Part shown: piece after piece, positions 1 through 24,559 of the stretch
Layout: each line of letters starts with the position of its first letter
Position numbering within the stretch: position 1 is the stretch's first letter
DNA from: a virus
Taxonomy: Duplodnaviria; Heunggongvirae; Uroviricota; Caudoviricetes
IMG/VR virus record: IMGVR_UViG_2734482782_000001
Coordinates: 1-28,372 of that record
Direction: 5' to 3' (one strand)
DNA length: 28,372 nt
The notes under the pieces: model-generated
Databases searched by the model: none
Told to the model about the DNA's origin: nothing
The model's input: the letters and a program-made list of their open reading frames with translations, nothing else
Program-made: the position numbers and the translations under genes

Positions 1-267
1 GAGGTTTGTGGTAAGCGCGTTTGTGAATTTTGTCACCAGCCCGGTAACATCTGCATTATCGAGAGCGTCCACGCCAGAGTTCGCAATAAACTGCCCCACC
101 AGCGCGGCAATTGTGGTCGCCTGCCGCAGAGCTTTATTTACCTGCGCACTGGACGCTTTCCCTGCGGTAAAACCAGACAGTAAAGCCGGGAGTGCTTCCC
201 AGTTCGCCTGTGGCGTGACATTAGCGTTAGGATCAAGCGCGAACGCTTTAAAGTTATTTGTTGCCAT
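1..267 (-). CDS. Putative tail fiber protein, N-terminal fragment; the gene continues beyond the window start
   Basis: ATG at 267-265 overlaps the stop of the upstream gene (TAATG coupling). My manual translation of the minus strand gives MATNNFKAFALDPNANVTPQANWEALPALLSGFTAGK... with no stop through position 1. Missing from the ORF track, apparently because it lacks an in-window stop. Position after the baseplate genes suggests a fiber. Confidence 0.5.
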   Translation of the reverse strand, partial: MATNNFKAFALDPNANVTPQANWEALPALLSGFTAGKASSAQVNKALRQATTIAALVGQFIANSGVDALDNADVTGLVTKFTNALTTNL

Positions 268-947
268 TAGAGTAAAGTCCCCCATGCTCCTACATCGAAC
301 CCGCCGATGTATTCGTTATCTAAATCAAAACCAAAGAATTTTGAGCCCTCGGACGGTGTTTCTACCGAAGGCGTTTCCACATCACCGGCCCATACGCCAG
401 CTGCTTTAACGGTGAGATAGCCCTGTTTGATTGCGGCGATCAGTTCGAGAGACACATCAGAAATATCAGTCTCCGGGAATACCCAGACCGAAATCGTCAT
501 GTCCTGGTTGTCGACGATCTGCATCTTCAGGCCAGAGCCTGCAGTCGCAGCGTCAAGGATGGGCGGCAGTGAGTCGTTGCGGCCGTCCCAGTTGTTGATA
601 GCGATTTTTGCTTTCAGAATGATGCGGTAGGTGTCATCGCTCAGCGACGTATAACCTGAATCCGGATCATACGGCCCTTGCCAGACGCCCTGGTCATATC
701 CGAGCCCGTCGGTGTCCCAGCTGAAATAAACACCCGTTATCGGCTGGCTAACTATACGGCTGCGTCCGATCCAGAGCCCGAGGGTATCAAGCTGGACGCC
801 TACAGCTGTATCGATGTCAAACGCGCTAACCAGCCCCCGGGTGGCTGATGTGATGTCAATCAGCGGCCGGGTGCTCAGGTCGATGTGATCAAAGTATTTC
901 GGTCTGGTGGCGTGGTAGTTGGTGATTAAGTCTGTGTACTTGCTCAT
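267..947 (-). CDS. Baseplate or tail protein (Mu gp48 / P2 gpI-like position)
   Basis: 226-aa ORF, ATG start, ATGA overlap with the J-like gene upstream. Lies between baseplate J and the tail fiber. Family not verified. Confidence 0.55.
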   Translation of the reverse strand: MSKYTDLITNYHATRPKYFDHIDLSTRPLIDITSATRGLVSAFDIDTAVGVQLDTLGLWIGRSRIVSQPITGVYFSWDTDGLGYDQGVWQGPYDPDSGYTSLSDDTYRIILKAKIAINNWDGRNDSLPPILDAATAGSGLKMQIVDNQDMTISVWVFPETDISDVSLELIAAIKQGYLTVKAAGVWAGDVETPSVETPSEGSKFFGFDLDNEYIGGFDVGAWGTLL

Positions 948-2143
948 GACGTCACCGTTAGAACAATATTTTCAGGCTTACAGGACGCTGATTCGTTGTA
1001 GGCGATATTGATATTAGCCGCCGCTACCGTTCCGGCAGATTTGCCAATCAGCAGCTCCTGAATGTCGTAATAGCGTGCGCTGCCACCACTGACCACGCCG
1101 AGGTTAGCCGGGGAGTAAATGCGGCTCAGCAGAACAGAATCACCGATCGTCAGCCCGTTGATGTAATCCGCAACGGCCTGCTGAATCTGTACGCCAATTT
1201 GCGACGTGTAGCCCGTAAAGGCTTTCAGTGTGATATGGCCGTAAATCGGAATATCAGTCGATCGCGAAAAGCTGATCACATGCGGGTTACCGTAGGTATC
1301 CGGCACCGTGACGGAAGTTGTCCCGTAGGTCGCGGTTCCCTGCCCTTTATTACCCCGGATAGTCTGGGCAATGTCGGTCACGTCCCCGCCGTCAACGATG
1401 GCCGATATAGAGTGTGGCGGCAGCCCGTTACTATCGGTAGCGCCAGTATCATTCTCGTAGAGCTTGTGACGTGTCACGCCAGCAACGTTAGCAATCGCAC
1501 CGTCGACGCCTTCAAACGGTGTGATAGAGGGCAGCGCAACGCTCTGCCCCTGCCTGATGCGCAGCTCTGCGTCGGTTTCTGCCGGAGCGCCTACGGTGGC
1601 CGCTGCCGGGTTGGTTACCGATGTCCAGCCTCGGGTCGGCGTGTTGATGGTAGTAATTGTCCCCGCCAGCGCTGCGACCGCGCCGCTGTTTGAACAGGTG
1701 GCAGTGGCCGTCACCGTACCGTCAACACCAATCACTACCGAGGCAGGAAGACGCCAGATCACGTTATTAGTGTCTTTCACAGTACCGTTCGTGATAGTTG
1801 TCCCTGCTGTGCCGGTGAGCAGCAGATCCACGGTGGAGTTCGTCGCCCCTTTGCGCGCGATACCGTTAATTTTCACGTTACTGGTCAGCGCTGCGCCGTA
1901 ACCCGTAGCAGGTGAGAAGCAGTTGTAAACGGCAATGGCCGTGTTATTGGCATCGTGAATAGCCAGAGCCACCAGCGCCACCATCTGGCCGTCTTTGCTA
2001 TCTGGCTCCAGATAAGCGTCACTGCCATAAATCTGCTGGAAATAGCTCGTCAGGGTATCGAGTATCGTCTGGTAATCAGGCGCACTGATCCCCTCAGCGG
2101 TTACCGTTGCCGATAAGCCGAGTGTGTCCAAATTGAGGGCCAT
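944..2143 (-). CDS. Baseplate J-like protein
   Basis: 399-aa ORF with ATG start, tightly coupled (TAAATG) to the gp46-like gene. Size and V -> W -> J gene order are typical of contractile-tail baseplates. Confidence 0.65.
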   Translation of the reverse strand: MALNLDTLGLSATVTAEGISAPDYQTILDTLTSYFQQIYGSDAYLEPDSKDGQMVALVALAIHDANNTAIAVYNCFSPATGYGAALTSNVKINGIARKGATNSTVDLLLTGTAGTTITNGTVKDTNNVIWRLPASVVIGVDGTVTATATCSNSGAVAALAGTITTINTPTRGWTSVTNPAAATVGAPAETDAELRIRQGQSVALPSITPFEGVDGAIANVAGVTRHKLYENDTGATDSNGLPPHSISAIVDGGDVTDIAQTIRGNKGQGTATYGTTSVTVPDTYGNPHVISFSRSTDIPIYGHITLKAFTGYTSQIGVQIQQAVADYINGLTIGDSVLLSRIYSPANLGVVSGGSARYYDIQELLIGKSAGTVAAANINIAYNESASCKPENIVLTVTS

Positions 2144-2497
2144 TTATGCCTCGCTGGTTACTGTCGTTGTTCCGTATATAGTGTCGATTTCAGCGAAGAA
2201 CTGGACGCGGCGCGTCGTCGTATTCACTGTCGTATTGAAAGAGAGAATGGATTTAACGCCCCGCGTTTCGAGGATGCGCTTACGGATCGCCAGGTTGTAG
2301 GTTTCCGGCTTCTGCTTACCGAGTACGGACTGAATCCACGGTGTCCCCTCTGTGGTGTCGAGAAACCACTGCCCATACCACAATTCGAATCGCGTTTTTA
2401 CAGCCTGCGCGACGGCCTCCGGTGAGTTAATCAGCCAGGTATCATCGCCGCTGCCAAAAGTGTAATCGCCGTCGTCGTCCTCACGTCGGTATCGCAT
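2144..2497 (-). CDS. Baseplate protein, GP46 / gp25(W)-like
   Basis: 117-aa ORF, ATG with GGGAGG RBS, immediately downstream of the V-like gene and upstream of J-like. Confidence 0.6.
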   Translation of the reverse strand: MRYRREDDDGDYTFGSGDDTWLINSPEAVAQAVKTRFELWYGQWFLDTTEGTPWIQSVLGKQKPETYNLAIRKRILETRGVKSILSFNTTVNTTTRRVQFFAEIDTIYGTTTVTSEA

Positions 2498-2499
2498 AA

Positions 2500-3153
2500 T
2501 TAGCCTCCCAGAGGTTTTGTATTGCTGCCGCCGCTTTCCACACCGCCATGCGTATGCTTATCAACGATTGAGCCATCCACCAGCTGCAGGCGGCCGTCAG
2601 ACAGAATTTTCAGGCCGTTCAGGTTGAACCCTCCCGGCGCGGTACCGGCTATAGCCCCACTTGAAGGATTAAGGCTCAGTTTGGTTCTGCCATCGTCGCT
2701 GCGCAGCTCAACCGCGCTGCCGCTGATGCCGCTGATTTTCTGCGCCTGCGACTGCGGTCCGACGATACAGAACGCATCCGATAAATCATGCACCCGGTCG
2801 TCGACAGGCTCCTGCACCCCGCCGTTCTGCCACCAGAAATCGATGCAGCGATCGGCGAAAATCACCAGGCATTCATCACCGGCTTTCACCGGGAACGTTA
2901 GCGTGCAGCCGCCGCCGCGTGGAAATATCACCGGCACATCCACCAGCAGCGGGTAATTTTTGGTAACGCGGTTGCCGTCGTTATCCGTTTCAACCGAACG
3001 AATAGCTGGCTGCACAACCGCCGTAACCGCGTCATGGTCGAATGACTGAACGATGCCAGGCAAAGCGACTCGGAGCTGGTTCTTTGTTGTGTCCCGCTCA
3101 GATTTGAATGTTTCGGCGAGGTCGCCGCTTCGGGTCTGGTCAGATACTGCCAT
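2500..3153 (-). CDS. Baseplate assembly protein V / central spike-like
   Basis: The track ORF 2500-3174 begins with TTG inside the terminator flank. The in-frame ATG at 3153 (MAVSDQTRSG...) is preceded by GGAGCC at good spacing, so I prefer that start. Size and position fit gpV-like. Confidence 0.6.
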   Translation of the reverse strand: MAVSDQTRSGDLAETFKSERDTTKNQLRVALPGIVQSFDHDAVTAVVQPAIRSVETDNDGNRVTKNYPLLVDVPVIFPRGGGCTLTFPVKAGDECLVIFADRCIDFWWQNGGVQEPVDDRVHDLSDAFCIVGPQSQAQKISGISGSAVELRSDDGRTKLSLNPSSGAIAGTAPGGFNLNGLKILSDGRLQLVDGSIVDKHTHGGVESGGSNTKPLGG

Positions 3154-3172
3154 TTGGTAGGCTCCAGAAAGC

Positions 3173-3198
3173 AAAAAACCCGCCGGGTGGCGGGTTTT
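3173..3198 (-). terminator. Rho-independent terminator closing the AT-rich cargo operon
   Basis: Plus strand reads AAAAAACCCGCCgggtGGCGGGTTTT: a GC stem CCCGCC/GGCGGG with a 4-nt loop. On the minus-strand transcript the stem is followed by a U6 run, directly after the stop of the 131-aa gene. Confidence 0.75.
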
Positions 3199-3217
3199 GC
3201 TAATTCACTGAATGAGT

Positions 3218-3613
3218 TTAAACAGCTTCGTCAGTCTTCATTTTTTCCCACTGAGAAAAAATAGTCTTAACCTCTAAGAGAGATTGCTGTGCCATTGCTT
3301 TATCAATTGCACAGCTAGTGAGGTCATAATCAGCTTCATTTCGAGCCAATCTCTGTTGCTCAAGTTTGTAAGCCATGGATTTTAGGCTTAATGGATCATA
3401 TGGCTCCAGTTTGTTTTCACTCTTATTTTTAAGATAAGAGATAAGGCTGGAATGATGATCCTTCGTATAAGCAGGAAGACTGGTCAGATTCTCTTTTATT
3501 TCATGGTAAAGCGCATAATATGCTCGCGAAATAGTATTACGATAACCAACCTCAGAATCTTCCGCAAAGCAACGCTCCGCAGAAGATAAAAATTCAGAGC
3601 TAGTTATAGGCAT
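3218..3613 (-). CDS. Hypothetical cargo protein, 131 aa, HEPN-like motifs
   Basis: ATG start with AAGGGTG RBS; overlaps the upstream 256-aa gene by 14 nt. About 35% GC by eye. Contains R30-x6-H37 (RAYYALYH) and R91-N-x3-Y96 (RNEADY), reminiscent of the HEPN Rx4-6H signature. Not confirmed by HMM. Confidence 0.7.
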   Translation of the reverse strand: MPITSSEFLSSAERCFAEDSEVGYRNTISRAYYALYHEIKENLTSLPAYTKDHHSSLISYLKNKSENKLEPYDPLSLKSMAYKLEQQRLARNEADYDLTSCAIDKAMAQQSLLEVKTIFSQWEKMKTDEAV

Positions 3614-4370
3614 ATTTACACCCTTTCAAGCTATTTCTTTCAACGGAAAAACGTGCAATAAGATTGCAATCATCCAGTAAATCGATTGAACAAATTTCAT
3701 CTGCAAGTCGCATATTCATTGCAACCACCTGCTCAGGGGATGCATTGACTACCTCAACCAGATAAGTCCCACCAGATGCACCGTTGATGTCAGCACGATA
3801 TTCAGTTGGCGGGAATTCAGCCATAACTCTATGAACAGCAAGAGCAACTTGCATGTATTGTTCTGAAGAGCAACCTGACTTTTTGTATGCTTCATCCATA
3901 TCGTGAATTACCTCCTGCAAGAAGGCTTCTGCGTCATCCCTATGTTCTTCTTGGGATAACATTTTGCAATGACGTCCAAAATATTCTACGCATTTTGATA
4001 GTTTCCCTACCAAATATGCAACGCCACCAGCCCTGTAAGTAAACCACTTGGTTGGATACTTATCAGCTAAAGAATAGATGTAGTAGTCCGATTTTTCGAG
4101 TAGAGAAAAACGCTCAAGCAGCTTACAAAAAATCCGCGCAAAGTTAACGTCAGCATGTGGGAGGATAGCTTCAAGCATTTCTATCCCGACACTCACCTCA
4201 CCTTTTGCAATATGAGCCAAAGCTACAAGCGTGTCAGCAGGCGGAGTATGCTTAGAGCCATATTCCGAAACCACCTCTCGAAAGGTCCAAATATCAAGAG
4301 GTTGACCACTATTGATTATCTTAACCAACTGGTCAAAACGCTCTTCCGCTTTCAGTTTTGGTCTTGCCAC
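3600..4370 (-). CDS. Hypothetical cargo protein, 256 aa, no recognisable motifs
   Basis: Long ORF in the AT-rich island. The first start codon after the in-frame upstream stop is GTG at 4370 with a weak SD, so the start is uncertain. No P-loop or nucleotidyltransferase motif seen. Confidence 0.65.
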   Translation of the reverse strand: MARPKLKAEERFDQLVKIINSGQPLDIWTFREVVSEYGSKHTPPADTLVALAHIAKGEVSVGIEMLEAILPHADVNFARIFCKLLERFSLLEKSDYYIYSLADKYPTKWFTYRAGGVAYLVGKLSKCVEYFGRHCKMLSQEEHRDDAEAFLQEVIHDMDEAYKKSGCSSEQYMQVALAVHRVMAEFPPTEYRADINGASGGTYLVEVVNASPEQVVAMNMRLADEICSIDLLDDCNLIARFSVERNSLKGCKYAYN

Positions 4371-4399
4371 AGTACGCTCGCTACTTATCTTTTGGTTGA

Positions 4400-4429
4400 A
4401 TTTTATGTTCGCGTATACAGTTTAGTCAA
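4400..4429 (-). promoter_or_regulatory. Candidate sigma70 promoter for the 256-aa/131-aa cargo operon
   Basis: On the minus strand: -35 TTGACT (4429-4424), 18-nt spacer, -10 TAAAAT (4405-4400), about 30 nt upstream of the GTG start at 4370. Confidence 0.45.
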
Positions 4430-4490
4430 TCCGAAGCTCATGCCGCTGAGCCGTTTCGCACAAAATCATCCATGCAAAAGGGATTGGACT

Positions 4491-4838
4491 TCAACCTGGC
4501 ACTTTCTTACACGGGAAAGAGCCGATGATTTTCGGCGCGTCCATGCTGTTCTGCAGCAGTTGGACGTTCAGGAAACGCGTTTCGGTACCAGGGCGATGGA
4601 TATACTCAAACCCATAGTTGTTGCCATCTTTAGCAGGCATTAGACCCATTTTGATCTGCATGCCTGTACCGTCTTTGCCCAACATTTTAACCTTTTGGGA
4701 TGTTACGGTTTCGCCATTGATTTTAAACAATGAGTCAGGGATCGCGTCCATACGAAAGTTACCACATTGCATCGTTATAGTGTTTGCACTTGCGCCAACA
4801 GACGCTAACGCCAGCAATGAAAAAATCCATCGTTTCAT
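4491..4838 (-). CDS. Small secreted protein with Sec signal peptide (cargo)
   Basis: The track ORF starts further upstream, but the internal ATG at 4838 gives MKRWIFSLLALASVGASA|NT..., a classic n/h/c signal peptide with an A-S-A cleavage site. GAGGGGG RBS sits 10 nt upstream; the start lies 2 nt after the hub stop. About 40-48% GC. Confidence 0.65.
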   Translation of the reverse strand: MKRWIFSLLALASVGASANTITMQCGNFRMDAIPDSLFKINGETVTSQKVKMLGKDGTGMQIKMGLMPAKDGNNYGFEYIHRPGTETRFLNVQLLQNSMDAPKIIGSFPCKKVPG

Positions 4839-4840
4839 TT

Positions 4841-5905
4841 CTATAACCCCCTCTGCAATGCAGTGCTCGATGGCATATCCTGCGCGCCACGCGCTTCGCA
4901 CATCATATCCATATACCACGCTTGGCCCCTTGTGTCGCCAGTGTACATAATCCCACGCACAATATAAACGCCATCCGTTGCGATGCTGGCAGGCTGCGCC
5001 GTGGTACCGCTGAGCGTGATATTGCCGTCTGTATTCTGGTCGGTGATGCGGCCCCCAGCCATCGCGATATCGTTGTTCGACAGTGCGGTGCGGAATACCG
5101 AAGCCTGATCCAGCTGAATGAGTCCGTTAACCCGGATGTTCGGGTTTATCAGCGCACGGACGTTCACGCCGTTGCCGATGGTCTGCTGCGGCATGCCGAT
5201 AAGCCCGGTGGCGCTGTTGAGCACAATCGCGTCGTGAACATACTCGTTATTCGCCACCATCTGGCGCTGGCCGTCCACGAACTGCCATGTTGCGCCACAT
5301 TGCCCGGCCACGTTATCCATAAGATGCCGTGTCATGCCGAACAGCACCCTGCCCCGGGGAAAAACGGTAGCAGGCATTTCAGGCGTCAGGCCTTCGGTCG
5401 CGCCTTTGGCCTCGAAGTCTTTCATCAGCGCGCGGTTCACGTCTGCGACCGTATAACCGGCCGCCAGCGTCTGCGAGGTTATGCTGGTGGCAAAGGCCAG
5501 ATCTGTATCGGCTGCCTGAATCAGGACGTAGGAATCAATGGGGCTGTCTTTTCCTGTGACCGAGTAACGAATTTCGCCGCTAAAAATCAGACCGTAGTTC
5601 CGGCCATCACTCTGGCCCACGTCCGCCGCGTCAACCTCCCGCACGGTCCCGACGTCGCTTGCCGATACCTCCGGCGCGATACCGTCGTAACCGGCAATTA
5701 GCCGCACCTTAGAAAACTCCTGCCCGGTGATGCGGTTCACCGTATCTGCCGAGAGGTTGTAGATTTTGAACGTTCCCACCCGGGACGCGCTGCTGATGTT
5801 GAACCAGTCGATCGTAAAGGTCACTTTAAAATCGCTGAGCTCAATACCCTGCCCGTTCTCGTCCACGAGCTGCAGCTCGAAATGTCTCATCCAGTTCTGC
5901 GACAT
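4841..5905 (-). CDS. Baseplate hub / tail protein (P2 gpD / Mu gp44-like position)
   Basis: 354-aa ORF, ATG start, high GC, placed after the tape measure and small tail proteins. Confidence 0.55.
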   Translation of the reverse strand: MSQNWMRHFELQLVDENGQGIELSDFKVTFTIDWFNISSASRVGTFKIYNLSADTVNRITGQEFSKVRLIAGYDGIAPEVSASDVGTVREVDAADVGQSDGRNYGLIFSGEIRYSVTGKDSPIDSYVLIQAADTDLAFATSITSQTLAAGYTVADVNRALMKDFEAKGATEGLTPEMPATVFPRGRVLFGMTRHLMDNVAGQCGATWQFVDGQRQMVANNEYVHDAIVLNSATGLIGMPQQTIGNGVNVRALINPNIRVNGLIQLDQASVFRTALSNNDIAMAGGRITDQNTDGNITLSGTTAQPASIATDGVYIVRGIMYTGDTRGQAWYMDMMCEARGAQDMPSSTALQRGL

Positions 5906-5907
5906 GC

Positions 5908-6210
5908 TTACTCCGTTGATACCAGTAAATGACTGCGGCCGCCCAGGTCGGTTTTCGTCGGATAATCCTGTGTGCTGTCGTCACAGACCACCACCAGCTT
6001 AAAGCCGAGCCCCATATAGCCGTACTGCGCCAGCAGGTCAGCGCCCGTAACGAGAGGAATACCAGAGATTACCGGCTCCCCTCTGTCGTTCTGCAGGTCC
6101 ATAATCCAGTACAGATCGCGCCAGGTGATGCTAATCCGCCAGGTGGTCCCCGCCAGGATGATGCTGAATTGCTGGTTATCCGCTGTCAGCGGGATTTCCT
6201 GAATTGCCAT
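5908..6210 (-). CDS. Small tail protein
   Basis: 100-aa ORF, ATG start, TAATG coupling with the upstream gene. Confidence 0.5.
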   Translation of the reverse strand: MAIQEIPLTADNQQFSIILAGTTWRISITWRDLYWIMDLQNDRGEPVISGIPLVTGADLLAQYGYMGLGFKLVVVCDDSTQDYPTKTDLGGRSHLLVSTE

Positions 6211-6797
6211 TAGCCGAGCCCCAGTAATGACGCCGCGTTACCCGTGATGCTTTTCAGCAGCGAGGTATTTGGCGGCTTTGTGGTTTTGGTGCCGGTATTC
6301 AGTACCGCCGACGTGCTGGCCCCGTCCTTCATGTTGGTTTTATCCGCGACGGTGATCTGCTGCGTCTGCGAGATAAGAACCTCCCTCAGGGTGAGGACGG
6401 CGGACAGGACGTTTTCGGTTGTCTTGTCTGTCGTCACTTCCATCGCGCGGATCAGCATGTTGCTGTACAGCCGTTTGCCGGTCACCACATCGAAAGGGAT
6501 ACGGCTCGCCTGCAGGTCGAGTATCTCCTGATACGTCTGCTGGGGGCTCAGACCGAGCAGACTGGTGGCCGTCAGGTTACTGGCAAAATCCAGCAACGAT
6601 CCGCCACCAGCGAAACCGACCTCCATCACCACTTCAGACGGTTTTTTGTAGGCATGGTCAGCGATAGCGGCCCCGACCTCGACAGGGTGCTCTGTTATCT
6701 CCAGCGTGTCGGTATGCTTCTCAGAAACAACCACACTGGGGACAATCATCCCTATTTTCCGGCTCTGCTGCTGAAAGAGCGTAGAGAGAATATCCAT
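6210..6797 (-). CDS. Tail protein downstream of the tape measure
   Basis: 195-aa ORF, ATG start, TAATG coupling with the TMP stop. Confidence 0.5.
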   Translation of the reverse strand: MDILSTLFQQQSRKIGMIVPSVVVSEKHTDTLEITEHPVEVGAAIADHAYKKPSEVVMEVGFAGGGSLLDFASNLTATSLLGLSPQQTYQEILDLQASRIPFDVVTGKRLYSNMLIRAMEVTTDKTTENVLSAVLTLREVLISQTQQITVADKTNMKDGASTSAVLNTGTKTTKPPNTSLLKSITGNAASLLGLG

Positions 6798-8806
6798 TAG
6801 CCCACCTTCGTTTGATTACCGCGCATGACCTGGGCGTTTGCCGACTGCTGCCGACGCTCGACCTCGGTACCGACAGAACGCGGGTCACCACCACCGTAGA
6901 TGTGATAGGTGTTTTGTTGCTGTACCTGCGCTCCCTTCCCGGGCATGTTACTCAACACCTTAGGAATGTAGTTGCGGGTTTCCTGCGGCATCAGGGCCAT
7001 TCCGTGCTTCTGCACGTTCCCGATCCCCCAGTTGTATGAGGCCAGCGCCTTGCTCAGGTCACCACCGTTAGCTTTCAGCAGCTGTGAGAGATATTTAGCA
7101 GCGGCCTGCGCGGCCTTTTCAGGATTGAATACGTCGTTCCCGCGCAGTCCCATATCACGCGCGGTACCGTCCATAAACTGAAACAGCCCTTTAGCGCCAG
7201 CGCCTGAAACAGCGAACTGATTTCCGCCCGATTCCGTTATGGCCACGCTGCGCAATAACCCCTCCGGAAGCCGATAGAGCTGCTCCAGGTTGGTTAGCAT
7301 GGGCTGCATCCATCCCAGCAGCTCAGAGCCCGCTTTGGTTGGCTGTGGCCGCTTGACTGACTGGCCGAGCTGTTCAGGCTCATCATCACCAAACCAGCCG
7401 CGCACCGTTCGGCCCACACTGCGAGGATCGAATCCCCAGTGCTCTTTAATCCAGTCGGCGGTACCGTTGGCGCTGTCTGTTACCATCGGCATCGCTGACG
7501 GATTTTCGCTGCCCTGATTGAGCATCTGTTTGCCGATGCTGGCGGCATCAGCCCAGCGGCCATCTTTAATGGCGTTGAGCAGGTCGGCGATCATATTCAG
7601 CATTTTGCTGAACTCGCCCATCTGGTCCCTGAAGTTGCTGAAATCCCACTTCAGGGACCATGATTTGGGGTCAATATTGAGCAGTTTCGCCAGCGCTTTC
7701 GCAAGGTCGTTAACGGTCGTTTTAAGGTCACGAACCATCTTCAGCGCGGCGTCGACTTCCGGTTTCCACTTGCCCCAGTCGATAAGGCTGTCGCCGCCCT
7801 CCTTCCAGGTCTGATAGTCCTCCCACAGAAGGGCAATCCCCGCCGCCAGCGCGGTAATAAGGCCAATCGGCGACATCCAGAACGTACTGTTCAGAATGCG
7901 TAGCGCAATCGTCAGCGCGCCAAACAGCGAGATCAGCTCCCGCGTTTGCTTGTCGAGTGATTGCCACCAGGTGATAAGGCTGGATGTTCCCTCAATAAGC
8001 CTGAAGAACAGCCGTCCGATGATGTCCCCGAGTGCCAGAATGCCTTTTATGGCTTTCGTCAGGGTCTGCTCGATACGCGGGAAGTTATCCAGGATATGAC
8101 GGCGCAGCGTGTCCAGCGAACCCGCCAGGCCACCAGCAAGATTAGAGCCGATTTTGTCACGGGCCATGCCTGCCATCGCGCCGAACTCGCGCAGGGAGGT
8201 CATGAATTTGTTGGAGCTTCTGGCCGCCTCGTCAGCATTGAAGCCGATAGCCTTCGCCATTGCGCTGTACTGCCCGGAGAAACCGCCAACACCCCGGCGC
8301 ATCGCCATGAGGGTATTTTCGTCAATGCCCAGCATCTGCGCATACTGGTTAGCCCGGTAGTACGGCATGCTGCTGAGCTTCTGGCCGACACCCGTAAAGA
8401 TAGCGGCCATATCGCGCATGTTACCGCTGGCGTCACGGGTCTGTACACCCAGGCGATTCAGGAAGCCTTCCGCACCCGGATTGTTACGAACAAACCGGGA
8501 GAGGCTTTCCAGAGAGGAGCGCGCCGCGTCTACGCTGCCGCCTACCTGCGAAACCGCATAGCCAATAGACTGAATCCCCTGAACCGTCGCGCCGGTGCGC
8601 TGTGACGCCCAGTAGAGATTATCCAGACCGGAGGCGATTTTAGCCGTAAAGGCCACCACAGTAAGCGCGGCACCTTCGACGGCCAGCCCCATTTTGATGG
8701 CGTTTGCGGTCGTACCTGCGAGAACTGAATCGAACTTTTCCGCGCCTGCTTCGTCGATATCGAAACCGAGCGAGACGAGAAAATCTTTAATAGTCTCAGC
8801 GTTCAT
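6797..8806 (-). CDS. Tail tape measure protein with C-terminal lytic transglycosylase (SLT)-like domain
   Basis: 669-aa ORF, ATG with GGAGAGAGG RBS. Alanine/glycine-rich helical N-terminal half, a hydrophobic segment (LISLFGALTIALRIL...GLITALAAGIALLW), and a C-terminal ...AITESGGNQFAVSGAGAKGLFQF...YNWG segment resembling SLT catalytic motifs. Lies downstream of the chaperone with frameshift. Confidence 0.75.
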   Translation of the reverse strand: MNAETIKDFLVSLGFDIDEAGAEKFDSVLAGTTANAIKMGLAVEGAALTVVAFTAKIASGLDNLYWASQRTGATVQGIQSIGYAVSQVGGSVDAARSSLESLSRFVRNNPGAEGFLNRLGVQTRDASGNMRDMAAIFTGVGQKLSSMPYYRANQYAQMLGIDENTLMAMRRGVGGFSGQYSAMAKAIGFNADEAARSSNKFMTSLREFGAMAGMARDKIGSNLAGGLAGSLDTLRRHILDNFPRIEQTLTKAIKGILALGDIIGRLFFRLIEGTSSLITWWQSLDKQTRELISLFGALTIALRILNSTFWMSPIGLITALAAGIALLWEDYQTWKEGGDSLIDWGKWKPEVDAALKMVRDLKTTVNDLAKALAKLLNIDPKSWSLKWDFSNFRDQMGEFSKMLNMIADLLNAIKDGRWADAASIGKQMLNQGSENPSAMPMVTDSANGTADWIKEHWGFDPRSVGRTVRGWFGDDEPEQLGQSVKRPQPTKAGSELLGWMQPMLTNLEQLYRLPEGLLRSVAITESGGNQFAVSGAGAKGLFQFMDGTARDMGLRGNDVFNPEKAAQAAAKYLSQLLKANGGDLSKALASYNWGIGNVQKHGMALMPQETRNYIPKVLSNMPGKGAQVQQQNTYHIYGGGDPRSVGTEVERRQQSANAQVMRGNQTKVG

Positions 8807-20219: not shown

Positions 20220-20822
20220 TCAGCCCAGGTATTTTTTGTAGATATCTGCTGCTTCCTGCGGGGTCAGGTTCGCCGCGTCGGCTTTGGCTGTCTCGTCCAT
20301 ATTGTTGAACGATTCGAAAATCTTCGGTGCTTCCAGCTCCATAAGCAGGGTTGCCGGAACTTTTACCCCCTCAGCCTCAAGCAGCTGCGCCGCCTCCAGC
20401 GCGGAGTATTTCCCGGCCACCTTATGTTTCATCACCTCGCGAAGCACATCACGCTGACGTTCTTCCTCGCTATAGACGCTGGTACCAAGACCGAGCACCT
20501 TTGAGAAAACAGCAATATCGTTGTGCGTGGGCAGCACATCTTCAATCGTGGTTTTCACACCATCCGGCGATGTGGTGACAACTTTCCGTTTACGAACGTC
20601 CAGGCTCTTACCGGCGACGCGGTTTATTTTCTCTCTGAGAGCTTCGCGAGCCTCAGTGAAAGCGCGCTCAAACTCGATATTCTCTTTACGCCAGCGACGG
20701 ATCGTCGTCTCGTCCACACCTAAGCGCTGAGCAACCATCCGATTGCTGATTTTGCTACGGGCTAATGCCATGTCCATAACGATACCGACGTAGGCTTTTC
20801 TGAAGCTTTTTTTAGGAGCCAT
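20220..20822 (-). CDS. Terminase small subunit (HTH DNA-binding)
   Basis: 200-aa ORF, ATG start, immediately upstream of TerL. N-terminal HTH-like SNRMVAQRLGVDETTIRRWR. Confidence 0.6.
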   Translation of the reverse strand: MAPKKSFRKAYVGIVMDMALARSKISNRMVAQRLGVDETTIRRWRKENIEFERAFTEAREALREKINRVAGKSLDVRKRKVVTTSPDGVKTTIEDVLPTHNDIAVFSKVLGLGTSVYSEEERQRDVLREVMKHKVAGKYSALEAAQLLEAEGVKVPATLLMELEAPKIFESFNNMDETAKADAANLTPQEAADIYKKYLG

Positions 20823-20880
20823 ACTTCCGCCTAAGTCAATGTGATTATTTTTTGTTCAAAATCCAATTTCTCCGATCCGG

Positions 20881-20974
20881 GTGCGGCGTATCACACGGTA
20901 AATTCTGGCGTGCAGGCCGCGTCCTCTCTGGTGCCAAGTGCGGCATATCAGAGGGGGTAAAAATGCGGCATATC
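20881..20974. repeat. Three direct repeats (G/A)TGCGGC(G/A)TATC between int and terS
   Basis: Copies at about 20881-20893, 20938-20950 and 20963-20974. An 8-bp inverted repeat ATAGTGGA-N13-TCCACTAT follows at about 21031-21059. Confidence 0.6.
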
Positions 20975-21066
20975 CTTTTTTTCGGGAAAACTGCGATTTG
21001 ATGCCCGGAGGCCGCGCAGAATGGGGAGATAGTGGATCGCCCTAATATTTCCACTATGTGGATAAC

Positions 21067-22071: not shown

Positions 22072-22250
22072 GCTGAACAATCCTCACTCAAAAAACATTA
22101 TCAAAGCCACTCGCCGAATGGATTTGATAATGCTAATAAAAATGTCTCGGAAGCTATCCTTCTGTGCTCCCAATCAAGCTTTGCCGTTGCACCCTCATCA
22201 TATGAAAAAGTTCATGATACATTATGCTTTTATCAACTGAGGTGATCGCG

Positions 22251-22502
22251 ATGTCTGAACTCGAAAGTAGAGTTAATGAACTTGAAACAGAAAATGAAGA
22301 ATTGAAGTTAGAAATTCAAGCTTTGCGAATTGCAGTGGTAACTATCTCTTCTGTCGTAAACGAGGCTGTCGGCAAAACGGCTGGCTTAATGGGTAACACC
22401 ATTGAGGAAAGTTTGATTTTTGATGAAGACTTAGACCAAGATGAAGAGCGCTTCAACAAAATGAAATCAAAATTAGTTCACCTTTTAGGCAAAAAAGAGT
22501 AG
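22251..22502 (+). CDS. Small acidic coiled-coil protein, function unknown
   Basis: Only convincing plus-strand gene. ATG at 22251 with GAGGTGA RBS (the track's upstream ATG at 22224 has no SD). 83 aa, glutamate-rich heptad pattern (ELESRVNELETENEELKLEIQALR). AT-rich; convergent with the lysis operon. Confidence 0.6.
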   Translation: MSELESRVNELETENEELKLEIQALRIAVVTISSVVNEAVGKTAGLMGNTIEESLIFDEDLDQDEERFNKMKSKLVHLLGKKE

Positions 22503-22533
22503 TAACCACCTTTCCCTCTTGTTTTTAATAAAA

Positions 22534-22558
22534 TCGTCGCCAGCAGTGACTGGCGGCG
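22534..22558 (-). terminator. Terminator-like hairpin between convergent Rz and the plus-strand small gene
   Basis: 9-bp stem CGTCGCCAG/CTGGCGGCG with one mismatch; on the minus transcript it is followed by AUUUUAUUAAAAA. Confidence 0.45.
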
Positions 22559-22572
22559 AAATTGACTTATGT

Positions 22573-24007: not shown

Positions 24008-24559
24008 TTACGGCAGAGCATTTGATAGAGCCTCTTCGAGGCCGAGACGCCGGAAGCACTTAAGCGCTGTCTGGCGGCTGCTGTTGATGATATTTACCTT
24101 ACCGGCCAGCGCTCTGGCAGTATTGGCAAACTCACCGCGCCATCGCGTGACACTCTCTGCTGTAGGGTTATCCAGCCCGACGTGATCACCATGCCAGTGA
24201 CTGCCGCAATTAATGGAGCAGTCAAACCCTAACAGGATGATGTTTTTCGCCCCCAGGCTGGCAGCAAAGAGAATCGAGCGCTGCCCGGAGTTGAAGGCCC
24301 ACCGGGTATCTGTATCAAACAGATTTAGCCCATAGCGTTTATGAGCCCGGTAATTACAGGTCCAGCGAGAGGCGGAGGACGGTAGAACATCGATGTTTGC
24401 ATCCCACCAGCGCAGATCACCCGCGTAAATGTATTCACAATCAGGCACGGCTTGCCAGGTGGAGTTAACAGCAATAACCGGCAGCCCCGATCCGGAGCTC
24501 AGTTCGCAATCTGATTTATTGAGAGACGGGCCGGATGCACAAATGATGAATGTATTCAT
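24008..24559 (-). CDS. Hypothetical cargo protein with GPSL Rossmann-like motif (DUF115 / GT42 glycosyltransferase-like)
   Basis: 183 aa, ATG start. N-terminal IICASGPSL, central ILFAASLGAKNIILLGFD, and HWHGDH; these resemble motifs of CstII-type sialyltransferases / MAF-DUF115 proteins as I recall them. Lies between the tR'-like terminator and the holin. Confidence 0.55.
   Translation of the reverse strand: MNTFIICASGPSLNKSDCELSSGSGLPVIAVNSTWQAVPDCEYIYAGDLRWWDANIDVLPSSASRWTCNYRAHKRYGLNLFDTDTRWAFNSGQRSILFAASLGAKNIILLGFDCSINCGSHWHGDHVGLDNPTAESVTRWRGEFANTARALAGKVNIINSSRQTALKCFRRLGLEEALSNALP

Follow-up and report, generated by a model that had tools for sequence, protein, structure and literature searches.

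A repeat array between a late recombinase gene and terS as the probable pac-type packaging-recognition region of a temperate headful phage

Results

The spacer between int2 and terS and its direct repeats

The window analysed here is the whole 28,372-nucleotide stretch of IMG/VR virus record IMGVR_UViG_2734482782_000001, a tailed virus of the Caudoviricetes. Its minus strand contains a 244-bp spacer (21066-20823) that runs from the stop codon of int2 to the start of terS. The upstream gene, int2 (22071-21067, minus), encodes a tyrosine recombinase of 334 amino acids, counted from a conserved MASIK start, and the downstream gene, terS (20220..20822, minus), encodes a 200-aa helix-turn-helix protein of the family phrog_26539, which is assigned below as the small terminase subunit. 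Three repeats with the minus-strand consensus GATAYGCCGCA lie in the spacer in the same orientation, and we propose them as TerS recognition repeats. R1, the copy closest to int2, reads GATATGCCGCA at 20974-20964; R2, 25 bp from R1, reads GATATGCCGCA again at 20949-20939; and R3, 57 bp beyond R2 with about 60 bp left to the terS start codon, reads GATACGCCGCA at 20892-20882 (all minus; start-to-start spacing 57 and 25 bp). The array thus occupies the interval 60-152 bp upstream of the terS start codon, with terL and the portal gene next in line. With up to one mismatch allowed, the consensus has three matches in the 28-kb window, which are R1-R3, all of them exact. The first-pass annotation of this DNA had described a 244-bp non-coding region between int and terS with three same-orientation repeats; its coordinates and sequences are confirmed, and the repeats are real and placed as described. 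A three-copy 11-mer family of this kind arises in 0/1000 dinucleotide-preserving shuffles of the spacer.

Relatives of the locus were collected with int2 as query, which gave 66 IMG/VR loci, and with TerS alone as query (an alignment of six closer sequences), which gave 38 loci in species-representative genomes. Spacer length is kept at ~245-270 bp across loci. A 69-codon reading frame inside the spacer was considered as a gene for a small protein and rejected, as stop codons break it in relatives; this lack of conservation indicates that the spacer is non-coding. No RNA element was detected in the spacer (0 Rfam matches up to E = 1; RNA fold z-score -1.28), and neither a promoter, sought by a consensus scan, nor a terminator was found in it. 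That no RNA family, significant RNA fold, promoter or terminator explains the spacer counts in favour of its reading as a site for TerS. A conserved A/T-rich element, TTTTGAACAAAAAATAAT (20844..20861, minus), is located just upstream of the terS ribosome-binding site and is nearly invariant within and between the repeat types described below; the consensus scan recognised no promoter at this element.

Repeat type follows the TerS recognition helix

The spacers of the collected loci align well and sort into types in which all repeat copies differ jointly. Type A has the consensus GATAYGCCGCA seen in the window, type B has (A/T)A(C/T)TCCGCA and type C has GATATGTCGCA. Inside one type the repeats are invariant and the DNA between them is variable. 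R1, for instance, is unvarying in 29 distinct type-A spacers, and loci with type-B TerS have GATAACTCCGCA in its place. The 57-bp spacing of R2 and R3 is kept across repeat types, with the intervening sequence merely 28-52% identical between types.

Repeat type predicts the recognition helix of TerS in 75/75 loci. Repeats with GCCGCA are found with the helix sequence DETTIRRW (40 loci), those with TCCGCA with DEATIRNW (34 loci) and those with GTCGCA with DEITIRRW (1 locus); the window's own recognition helix, in the N-terminal helix-turn-helix of TerS, is DETTIRRWRKEN. More divergent lineages show further pairs of this kind. Locus L121 (int2 67% identical) has EGTIRNW and TCCGCA, and L122 (60%) has ETTIRRW and GCCGCA. 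In L123 (53%) the helix EITIRRW is found with ATGTCGCA in three direct copies and one inverted, and in the Serratia locus L124 (47%) EMTIRRY is found with four copies of (A/C)TGTCGCA. The Arsenophonus loci L103 and L096 (int2 ~33% identical in L103, a partial gene in L096) pair DEKTIRNW with four copies of TCCGCA. Another Arsenophonus locus, L105 (~35%, partial gene), has SNN...NEKTIRNW, with two helix-turn-helix changes (H to N and D to N), and TCCGAA in all four copies. Finally, the Symbiopectobacterium locus L095, with an int2 32% identical to the Yersinia one, pairs ESTIRNW with four copies of TGCGCAC.

One variant is common to every repeat copy of a locus, and this includes the inverted copies in L036 and L059, two insertion variants that carry an extra inverted repeat copy of the cognate type; in both, R2 itself gives way to an inverted copy of that type. 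Linkage alone does not explain an identical change in every copy of a locus. Judged from the sequences, repeat type also varies independently of int2. Each of the two main types is represented among loci whose int2 is at least 97% identical (34 and 23 loci), and L011, whose int2 is 100% identical to that of the window, nevertheless has type-B repeats. Similarly, L061 and L063 are sisters in int2 and in the C-terminal part of TerS and differ in their repeats together with the helix. The co-variation across the 75 loci and the further lineages strongly supports the predicted specific recognition of R1-R3 by TerS.

Assignment of TerS and the class of the large terminase

Profile matches of the protein encoded by terS are weak and consist of helix-turn-helix families, TerS PHROGs at 1e-4 to 1e-6 and the unannotated family phrog_26539, and a profile search for a homologue of solved structure gave no significant match (top match 2ao9, E = 0.28). 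The helix-turn-helix is located at residues 19-48. The gene is directly upstream of terL (20022-18405, minus; phrog_2), which encodes the large terminase subunit, and of the portal gene (from 18436 downward, minus), and in relatives it overlaps the terL start. In phiSG1 and relatives with P22-type portal genes, the phrog_26539 protein is the only TerS candidate; phiSG1 has been counted among the P22-like phages (PMC2629481). This assignment is further supported by the C-terminal tail of the protein, which switches with the TerL family. All tails of the form ...EAAD(I/A/V/L)Y(K/R)(K/N/E)xxG for which a downstream TerL was found precede the window's TerL type, and the tail ...PVAITINVV... precedes a Terminase_6 TerL. 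Small terminase subunits classically combine an N-terminus suited to the DNA with a C-terminus suited to TerL, as in lambda and phage 21. The co-variation of the tail with TerL and the overlap with terL identify the helix-turn-helix protein as TerS, and position and modularity settle the question for this 200-aa protein.

The nuclease domain of TerL matches PDB chains named 'Gene 2 protein' (4idh, 5c10 and others; E ~3e-23), which we take to be gp2 of Shigella phage Sf6. The window's TerL is 38% identical over 95% of its length to that of the 9NA-like Salmonella phage Solent, and the TerL of Burkholderia phage Magia, 63% identical to the window's, carries a depositor note that cites phage 9NA TerL as a BLAST hit. 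The Sf6 TerL group is placed among headful packagers in a study that refers to Zeng et al. 2019 on 9NA-group packaging (PMC12772287). Similarity to Sf6/9NA-type enzymes is thus suggestive of a TerL of the headful class, and this resemblance argues for a site of the pac type rather than the cos type. The int2-spacer-terS cassette also precedes Terminase_3 and Terminase_6 genes, alongside P22-type portal genes. The first-pass annotation had offered terminase small-subunit binding sites, as in lambda cosB, as one of two readings of the repeats. The binding-site part of this proposal is upheld by the co-variation with the recognition helix, and lambda cosB becomes an analogy rather than a family relation, as TerL is headful-like.

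A late recombinase in the company of terS

int2 matches Pfam Phage_integrase (E 2.6e-15), and Pfam gave no match for its N-terminal 155 residues. Its catalytic R, K, HxxR, H and Y are invariant and dN/dS is 0.06-0.15; by these measures int2 is an intact enzyme under purifying selection. The AlphaFold2 model of the protein (mean pLDDT 90.8) begins with a three-strand sheet (residues 3-8, 14-21 and 28-33) and a helix (36-52), followed by the core-binding and catalytic domains, and its top PDB matches are Tn1549 Int and full-length lambda Int. In the model, the N-terminal domain appears to be of the arm-binding kind.

The genes around the spacer are all encoded by the minus strand. Read in transcriptional order, the genes for a holin (23946-23629), a lysozyme (23639-23115) and an Rz-like spanin (23118-22573) are followed by a variable stretch of ~490 bp and then by int2, the spacer, terS, terL and the portal gene. 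The late position of int2 is also seen in relatives, where the gene overlaps Rz (phiSG1) or starts 36 bp past an Rz-like gene (Yersinia pestis contigs). int2 and TerS are adjacent in 62/62 loci found via int2 and in 38/38 found via TerS. The pairing also occurs in phiSG1 (23-25% identity), in Erwinia LS-2018a (31%) and in elements that carry ParA and for that reason look like phage-plasmids. The int2-terS pair precedes at least four TerL families, and int2 lies ~150-300 bp upstream of a phrog_26539 terS whatever the TerL family, virion type or lifestyle (loci including L008, L077, L095, L103 and L121-L124). An E. coli prophage with the same TerL family and a different TerS has no recombinase at this place. 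A search of the literature for a recombinase paired with terS returned nothing on this pairing.

We further note several features of individual relatives. Serine resolvase/invertase genes are found at most 1-2 kb downstream of the int2-terS pair in L077 (8224-8826), L079 (5008-5631) and L124 (4985-5566), and in Yersinia such a gene is located between terL and the portal gene. The draft genome of Candidatus Arsenophonus triatominarum alone holds more than 20 int2-spacer-terS modules (L097-L120), many of them on short contigs and some with truncated recombinase genes. In the record of Yersinia phage YP3 (L009, PV092592.1), the recombinase gene adjoins terL and terS is displaced from terL by 15 kb; this arrangement was considered as a natural deletion or recombination product. 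The record appears to be a main scaffold with left-over contigs appended at ~30.9-36.9 kb and pieces duplicated, and was not used.

The 490-bp gap between Rz and int2 in the window (22081-22572) has a terminator-like hairpin directly after Rz (22555-22538, minus). In relatives this slot measures between ~70 bp and 1 kb and is occupied by small, unrelated genes, and such variation in size and content suggests that it acts as a moron slot. The 183-aa product of a gene between the late-regulator region and the holin gene (24008-24559, minus) matches phrog_4603 (annotated alpha-2,3-sialyltransferase) strongly and Pfam MptE-like below threshold, and the gene may serve in lysogenic conversion.

A constrained block beside int2 and an invariant 13-mer

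A conserved non-coding block of 67 bp (21000..21066, minus) directly follows the int2 stop codon. It holds an inverted repeat of the form 8-N13-8, with arms ATAGTGGA (21029-21036) and TCCACTAT (21050-21057). This repeat, also listed in the first-pass annotation, is present with arms that are 100% complementary, though 45/1000 shuffles also yield 8-bp arms in perfect inverted symmetry separated by 3-20 nt, which makes it marginal alone. It is only partly kept in relatives: the left arm varies (ATAATGGA, TTAATGGA, AAAATGGA, ATCATGGA) and the right arm is nearly fixed. One change is compensated, in L061, and the left-arm changes of most relatives are uncompensated. Arsenophonus has at the same position an 8-N13-8 repeat of unrelated sequence, ATTAAGGT-N13-ACCTTAAT.

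Positions 21020-21066 are 79-89% identical in loci where the adjacent int2 coding sequence is 43-73% identical and dS is 1-3.5, a comparison by which the block beside the int2 stop codon is under strong constraint. The block is replaced by other sequence in L090 and L123 (int2 53-59% identical), and L090 has TerS sites and a TerL of the ordinary kind despite this replacement. From these two divergent loci the block appears to follow the int2 lineage, to which adjacency to the int2 stop codon contributes. The block with its inverted repeat is a separate constrained element and, more tentatively, is most simply int2's own site; the inverted repeat is a minor feature of this block, which probably belongs to int2.

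Two other roles for the block were considered. An inversion or deletion switch would require a second copy, and none is present in the whole E. coli prophage described below or in Elizabethkingia phage EKP1, which makes such a switch unlikely. A simple site of the Cre/lox type does not fit the 8-bp arms, the 13-bp spacer, the uncompensated variation of the left arm and the arm-like domain of int2; the 8-N13-8 repeat of different sequence in Arsenophonus leaves this test suggestive at best.

The 13-mer AAATCGCAGTTTT (20999-20987, minus) lies between the conserved block and R1. It is invariant in 56/56 distinct IMG/VR spacers and is kept at 53-100% int2 identity, with all TerS types and with three other TerL families, the one change being a T-to-A in L121. 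Both mosaic junctions of the spacer, between its int2-linked and TerS-linked halves, abut this 13-mer. It may be a fourth, specificity-independent TerS site (R0), a cleavage point, a recombination core or a homology patch for exchanges.

The spacer lies inside integrated prophages

A 2.3-kb query across the spacer matches six E. coli chromosomes and is unbroken at ~98% identity in five of them. In strain 25-07338, copies of a 24-bp direct repeat, GTTCAACTCCCGCCAGCTCCACCA, mark the two ends of the prophage at a distance of 38,959 bp. The ssrA 3' end forms one of them; the other is found just past a 390-aa protein, the terminal integrase of the prophage, which is annotated as 'Arm DNA-binding domain-containing'. 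The spacer is 23 kb and 16 kb from the two ends of this ~39-kb prophage and occupies the same internal position in strain DX6. A comparison with lysogen genomes to locate attL and attR, proposed in the first-pass annotation, thus places the ssrA repeats at the prophage boundaries and the spacer in the interior. An uninterrupted spacer is also present in all the further loci, 62/62 on viral contigs and 38/38 in genomes, and the ssrA att core is absent from the window.

The record of Elizabethkingia phage EKP1 contains two recombinase genes, one in the expected attP position between the tail genes and the early genes, and the other before terS. This record (L010, OM284015.1) is 66-79% identical in DNA to the window's Enterobacteriaceae-type phage over most of the late region, which makes its stated Flavobacteriia host look doubtful.

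Discussion

The spacer is probably the pac-type packaging-recognition region of a temperate headful phage, with R1-R3 as the TerS recognition array. The N-terminal helix-turn-helix of TerS, encoded immediately downstream, would bind R1-R3, and a TerS oligomer on this array would bend or wrap the DNA. The C-terminal tail of TerS would then recruit TerL, which would make the first cut nearby, and headful packaging would proceed, probably toward terS and terL. In this scheme, the physical contact of TerS with the DNA, the cut site and the direction in which packaging runs are inferred.

Several points weigh against this assignment. The best-studied headful phages, P22 and P1 (pacA), have pac within the terS-equivalent gene rather than ahead of it. 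By binding in front of its own gene, TerS might act as an autoregulator, either in addition to or in place of a packaging role. The repeats are merely 60-180 bp away from the codons with which they co-vary, and at this distance co-inheritance as a short cassette contributes to the association. No recombinant that splits the repeats from the helix codons was seen among the loci, which fits either explanation. Finally, TerS binding accounts for neither the 13-mer nor the conserved block.

A packaging-recognition role for the spacer has parallels in two well-studied systems. In the headful phage SPP1, pac (pacL, pacC, pacR) is recognised by the TerS protein G1P. There, too, TerS binds short repeated boxes located before terS and at its beginning, and it bends the DNA and TerL cuts nearby, as proposed for the window. 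The sequences are unrelated, however; phrog_26539 is another TerS family, the cut position in the window is a matter of prediction, and no recombinase gene is known to abut the SPP1 pac. In lambda, the cosB sites R3, R2 and R1 are bound by the winged helix-turn-helix of gpNu1, and lambda and phage 21 differ in a packaging-specificity cassette. The window resembles lambda in having three short repeats between a conserved element and terS. It resembles the lambda/phage 21 pair in placing specificity in the N-terminal helix-turn-helix of TerS and its sites, which are exchanged as a cassette, and in a TerS C-terminus that matches TerL. In contrast, lambda packages from cos, has an IHF site and carries one of its repeats inverted, whereas the repeats of the window are all direct and its TerL is of the headful type.

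The closeness of this layout to lambda cosN-cosB-Nu1 (conserved block, three repeats, terS) could instead mean that the spacer is a lambda-like cos site, with the repeats as cosB R-sites, a nick in the conserved block and unit-length genomes with cohesive ends; the partial dyad symmetry of the invariant 13-mer would also fit. We consider this quite improbable, given that the closest characterised relatives of TerL are headful enzymes of the Sf6 and 9NA types and that the cassette is also found before Terminase_3/Terminase_6 genes with P22-type portal genes. Conservation of the 13-mer across differing TerL families further makes a TerL-specific nicking site unlikely. The other reading in the first-pass annotation was that the repeats are Int arm-type sites of an attP; the spacer would then be the attP of int2, with the inverted repeat as the core. 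The likeness to lambda attP is evident in an arm-domain-like tyrosine recombinase, best matched by lambda Int and Tn1549 Int, and in a ~250-bp, repeat-bearing non-coding region of conserved length 3' of its gene. Unlike an attP, however, the region stays whole in lysogens, in prophages that use another integrase at ssrA and are bounded by ssrA repeats far from the spacer, and the att core of these prophages is not in the window. The repeats follow TerS and differ next to recombinases that are 99-100% identical, and int2 is a late gene, directly after Rz in relatives, and not an early one. These comparisons refute the attP reading, which is extremely improbable. The suggestion that the window shows an unintegrated gene order falls with it, as integrated and free genomes share the same order, which is uninformative on integration state. 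The label 'int' likewise holds for the tyrosine recombinase fold and not for the role, since a separate 390-aa integrase sits at the prophage end.

Recognition of R1-R3 by the helix-turn-helix protein could also serve late transcription of its own gene, with the repeats as operators and no role in packaging recognition. A regulator and its operators would co-vary equally well, the sites are upstream of the protein's own gene and a conserved A/T-rich element precedes the terS start codon. However, no promoter-like site was found in the spacer, terS is within a Q-antiterminated late operon, and the protein is TerS by its tail and its overlap with terL, with P22-type relatives offering no other TerS candidate; an operator function alone is thus very improbable. 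A different alternative takes the whole spacer as a recombination site of int2, with TerS as an architectural, Xis-like partner. This would couple site-specific recombination to the initiation of packaging, for instance through the fusion or resolution of genome circles or the cyclisation of terminally redundant DNA, the task of Cre at lox in P1. int2, the spacer and terS are obligately linked over 23-100% int2 identity and at least four TerL families, int2 has an intact active site under purifying selection and an arm-domain-type fold, the block by its stop codon is constrained and appears to follow the int2 lineage, and no recombinase accompanies this TerL backbone when the TerS is a different one. 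The TerS helix-turn-helix also has a weak, sub-threshold match to HTH_17, a Pfam family that presumably includes excisionases. Against this stand the absence of any observed recombination product among the loci, an inverted repeat that makes a poor core (8-bp arms, 13-bp spacer, imperfect symmetry in relatives), the presence of a serine resolvase in some relatives, and an adjacency that may also reflect a cis-acting site kept beside its gene. In addition, if packaging runs toward terL, headful geometry would leave a site upstream of pac badly placed for cyclisation. We regard this alternative as unlikely.

In a related reading, which we likewise regard as unlikely, int2, the spacer and terS are one functional unit, in which a late, lambda-Int-like recombinase acts at or beside pac together with TerS. 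The spacer would then be att-like, with the left arm belonging to int2, AAATCGCAGTTTT as the common core and TerS at R1-R3 as the architectural partner, and the unit would fuse, resolve or cyclise genomes, preparing or rescuing packaging substrates. Its position would be comparable to that of the HNH endonucleases of HK97-like phages. In P1, Cre acts at loxP near pac to cyclise terminally redundant DNA and to resolve dimers, and P1 and the window are alike in having a phage tyrosine recombinase and its site close to the packaging origin. No arm-type N-terminal domain is known in Cre, and its loxP site, a 13-8-13 palindrome, is several kb away from pac, whereas int2, with the fold of lambda Int and Tn1549 Int, abuts the TerS sites, probably on the upstream side of pac. 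The nearest published parallel is found in the integrases of helper-embedded PICI satellites, which target prophage late genes; there, too, a gene for a tyrosine integrase sits in a late operon of a prophage and is read in the direction of the late genes (PMC10111431). A PICI integrase, however, heads a multi-gene satellite that interrupts a late gene, whereas int2 is followed by terS and the whole morphogenetic operon, and the int2-terS unit is also found in phages isolated as virions.

The assignment of the spacer to packaging corrects a likely annotation trap, in which an 'integrase' lies beside a repeat-rich spacer that is not attP. The TerS family phrog_26539, listed as 'hypothetical' or 'unknown function' in all the databases consulted, is a common component of E. 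coli, Salmonella, Enterobacter and Citrobacter prophages and of elements in Yersinia pestis, Sodalis and Arsenophonus. Within the recognition helix, T goes with G-C, I or M with G-T, and A or G (plus N) with T-C, and this link of one residue to one base pair makes packaging specificity predictable. Such specificity decides the range of phages or satellites able to use a common terminase, and the places at which generalised transduction could begin from pseudo-pac sites. The findings also bring to light a conserved late-operon recombinase that is tied to the packaging origin and stays in constant company with terS. If int2, the spacer and terS do form one unit, int2 would count as an accessory enzyme of the terminase and would occur widely in the prophages and phage-plasmids of Enterobacterales and insect symbionts.

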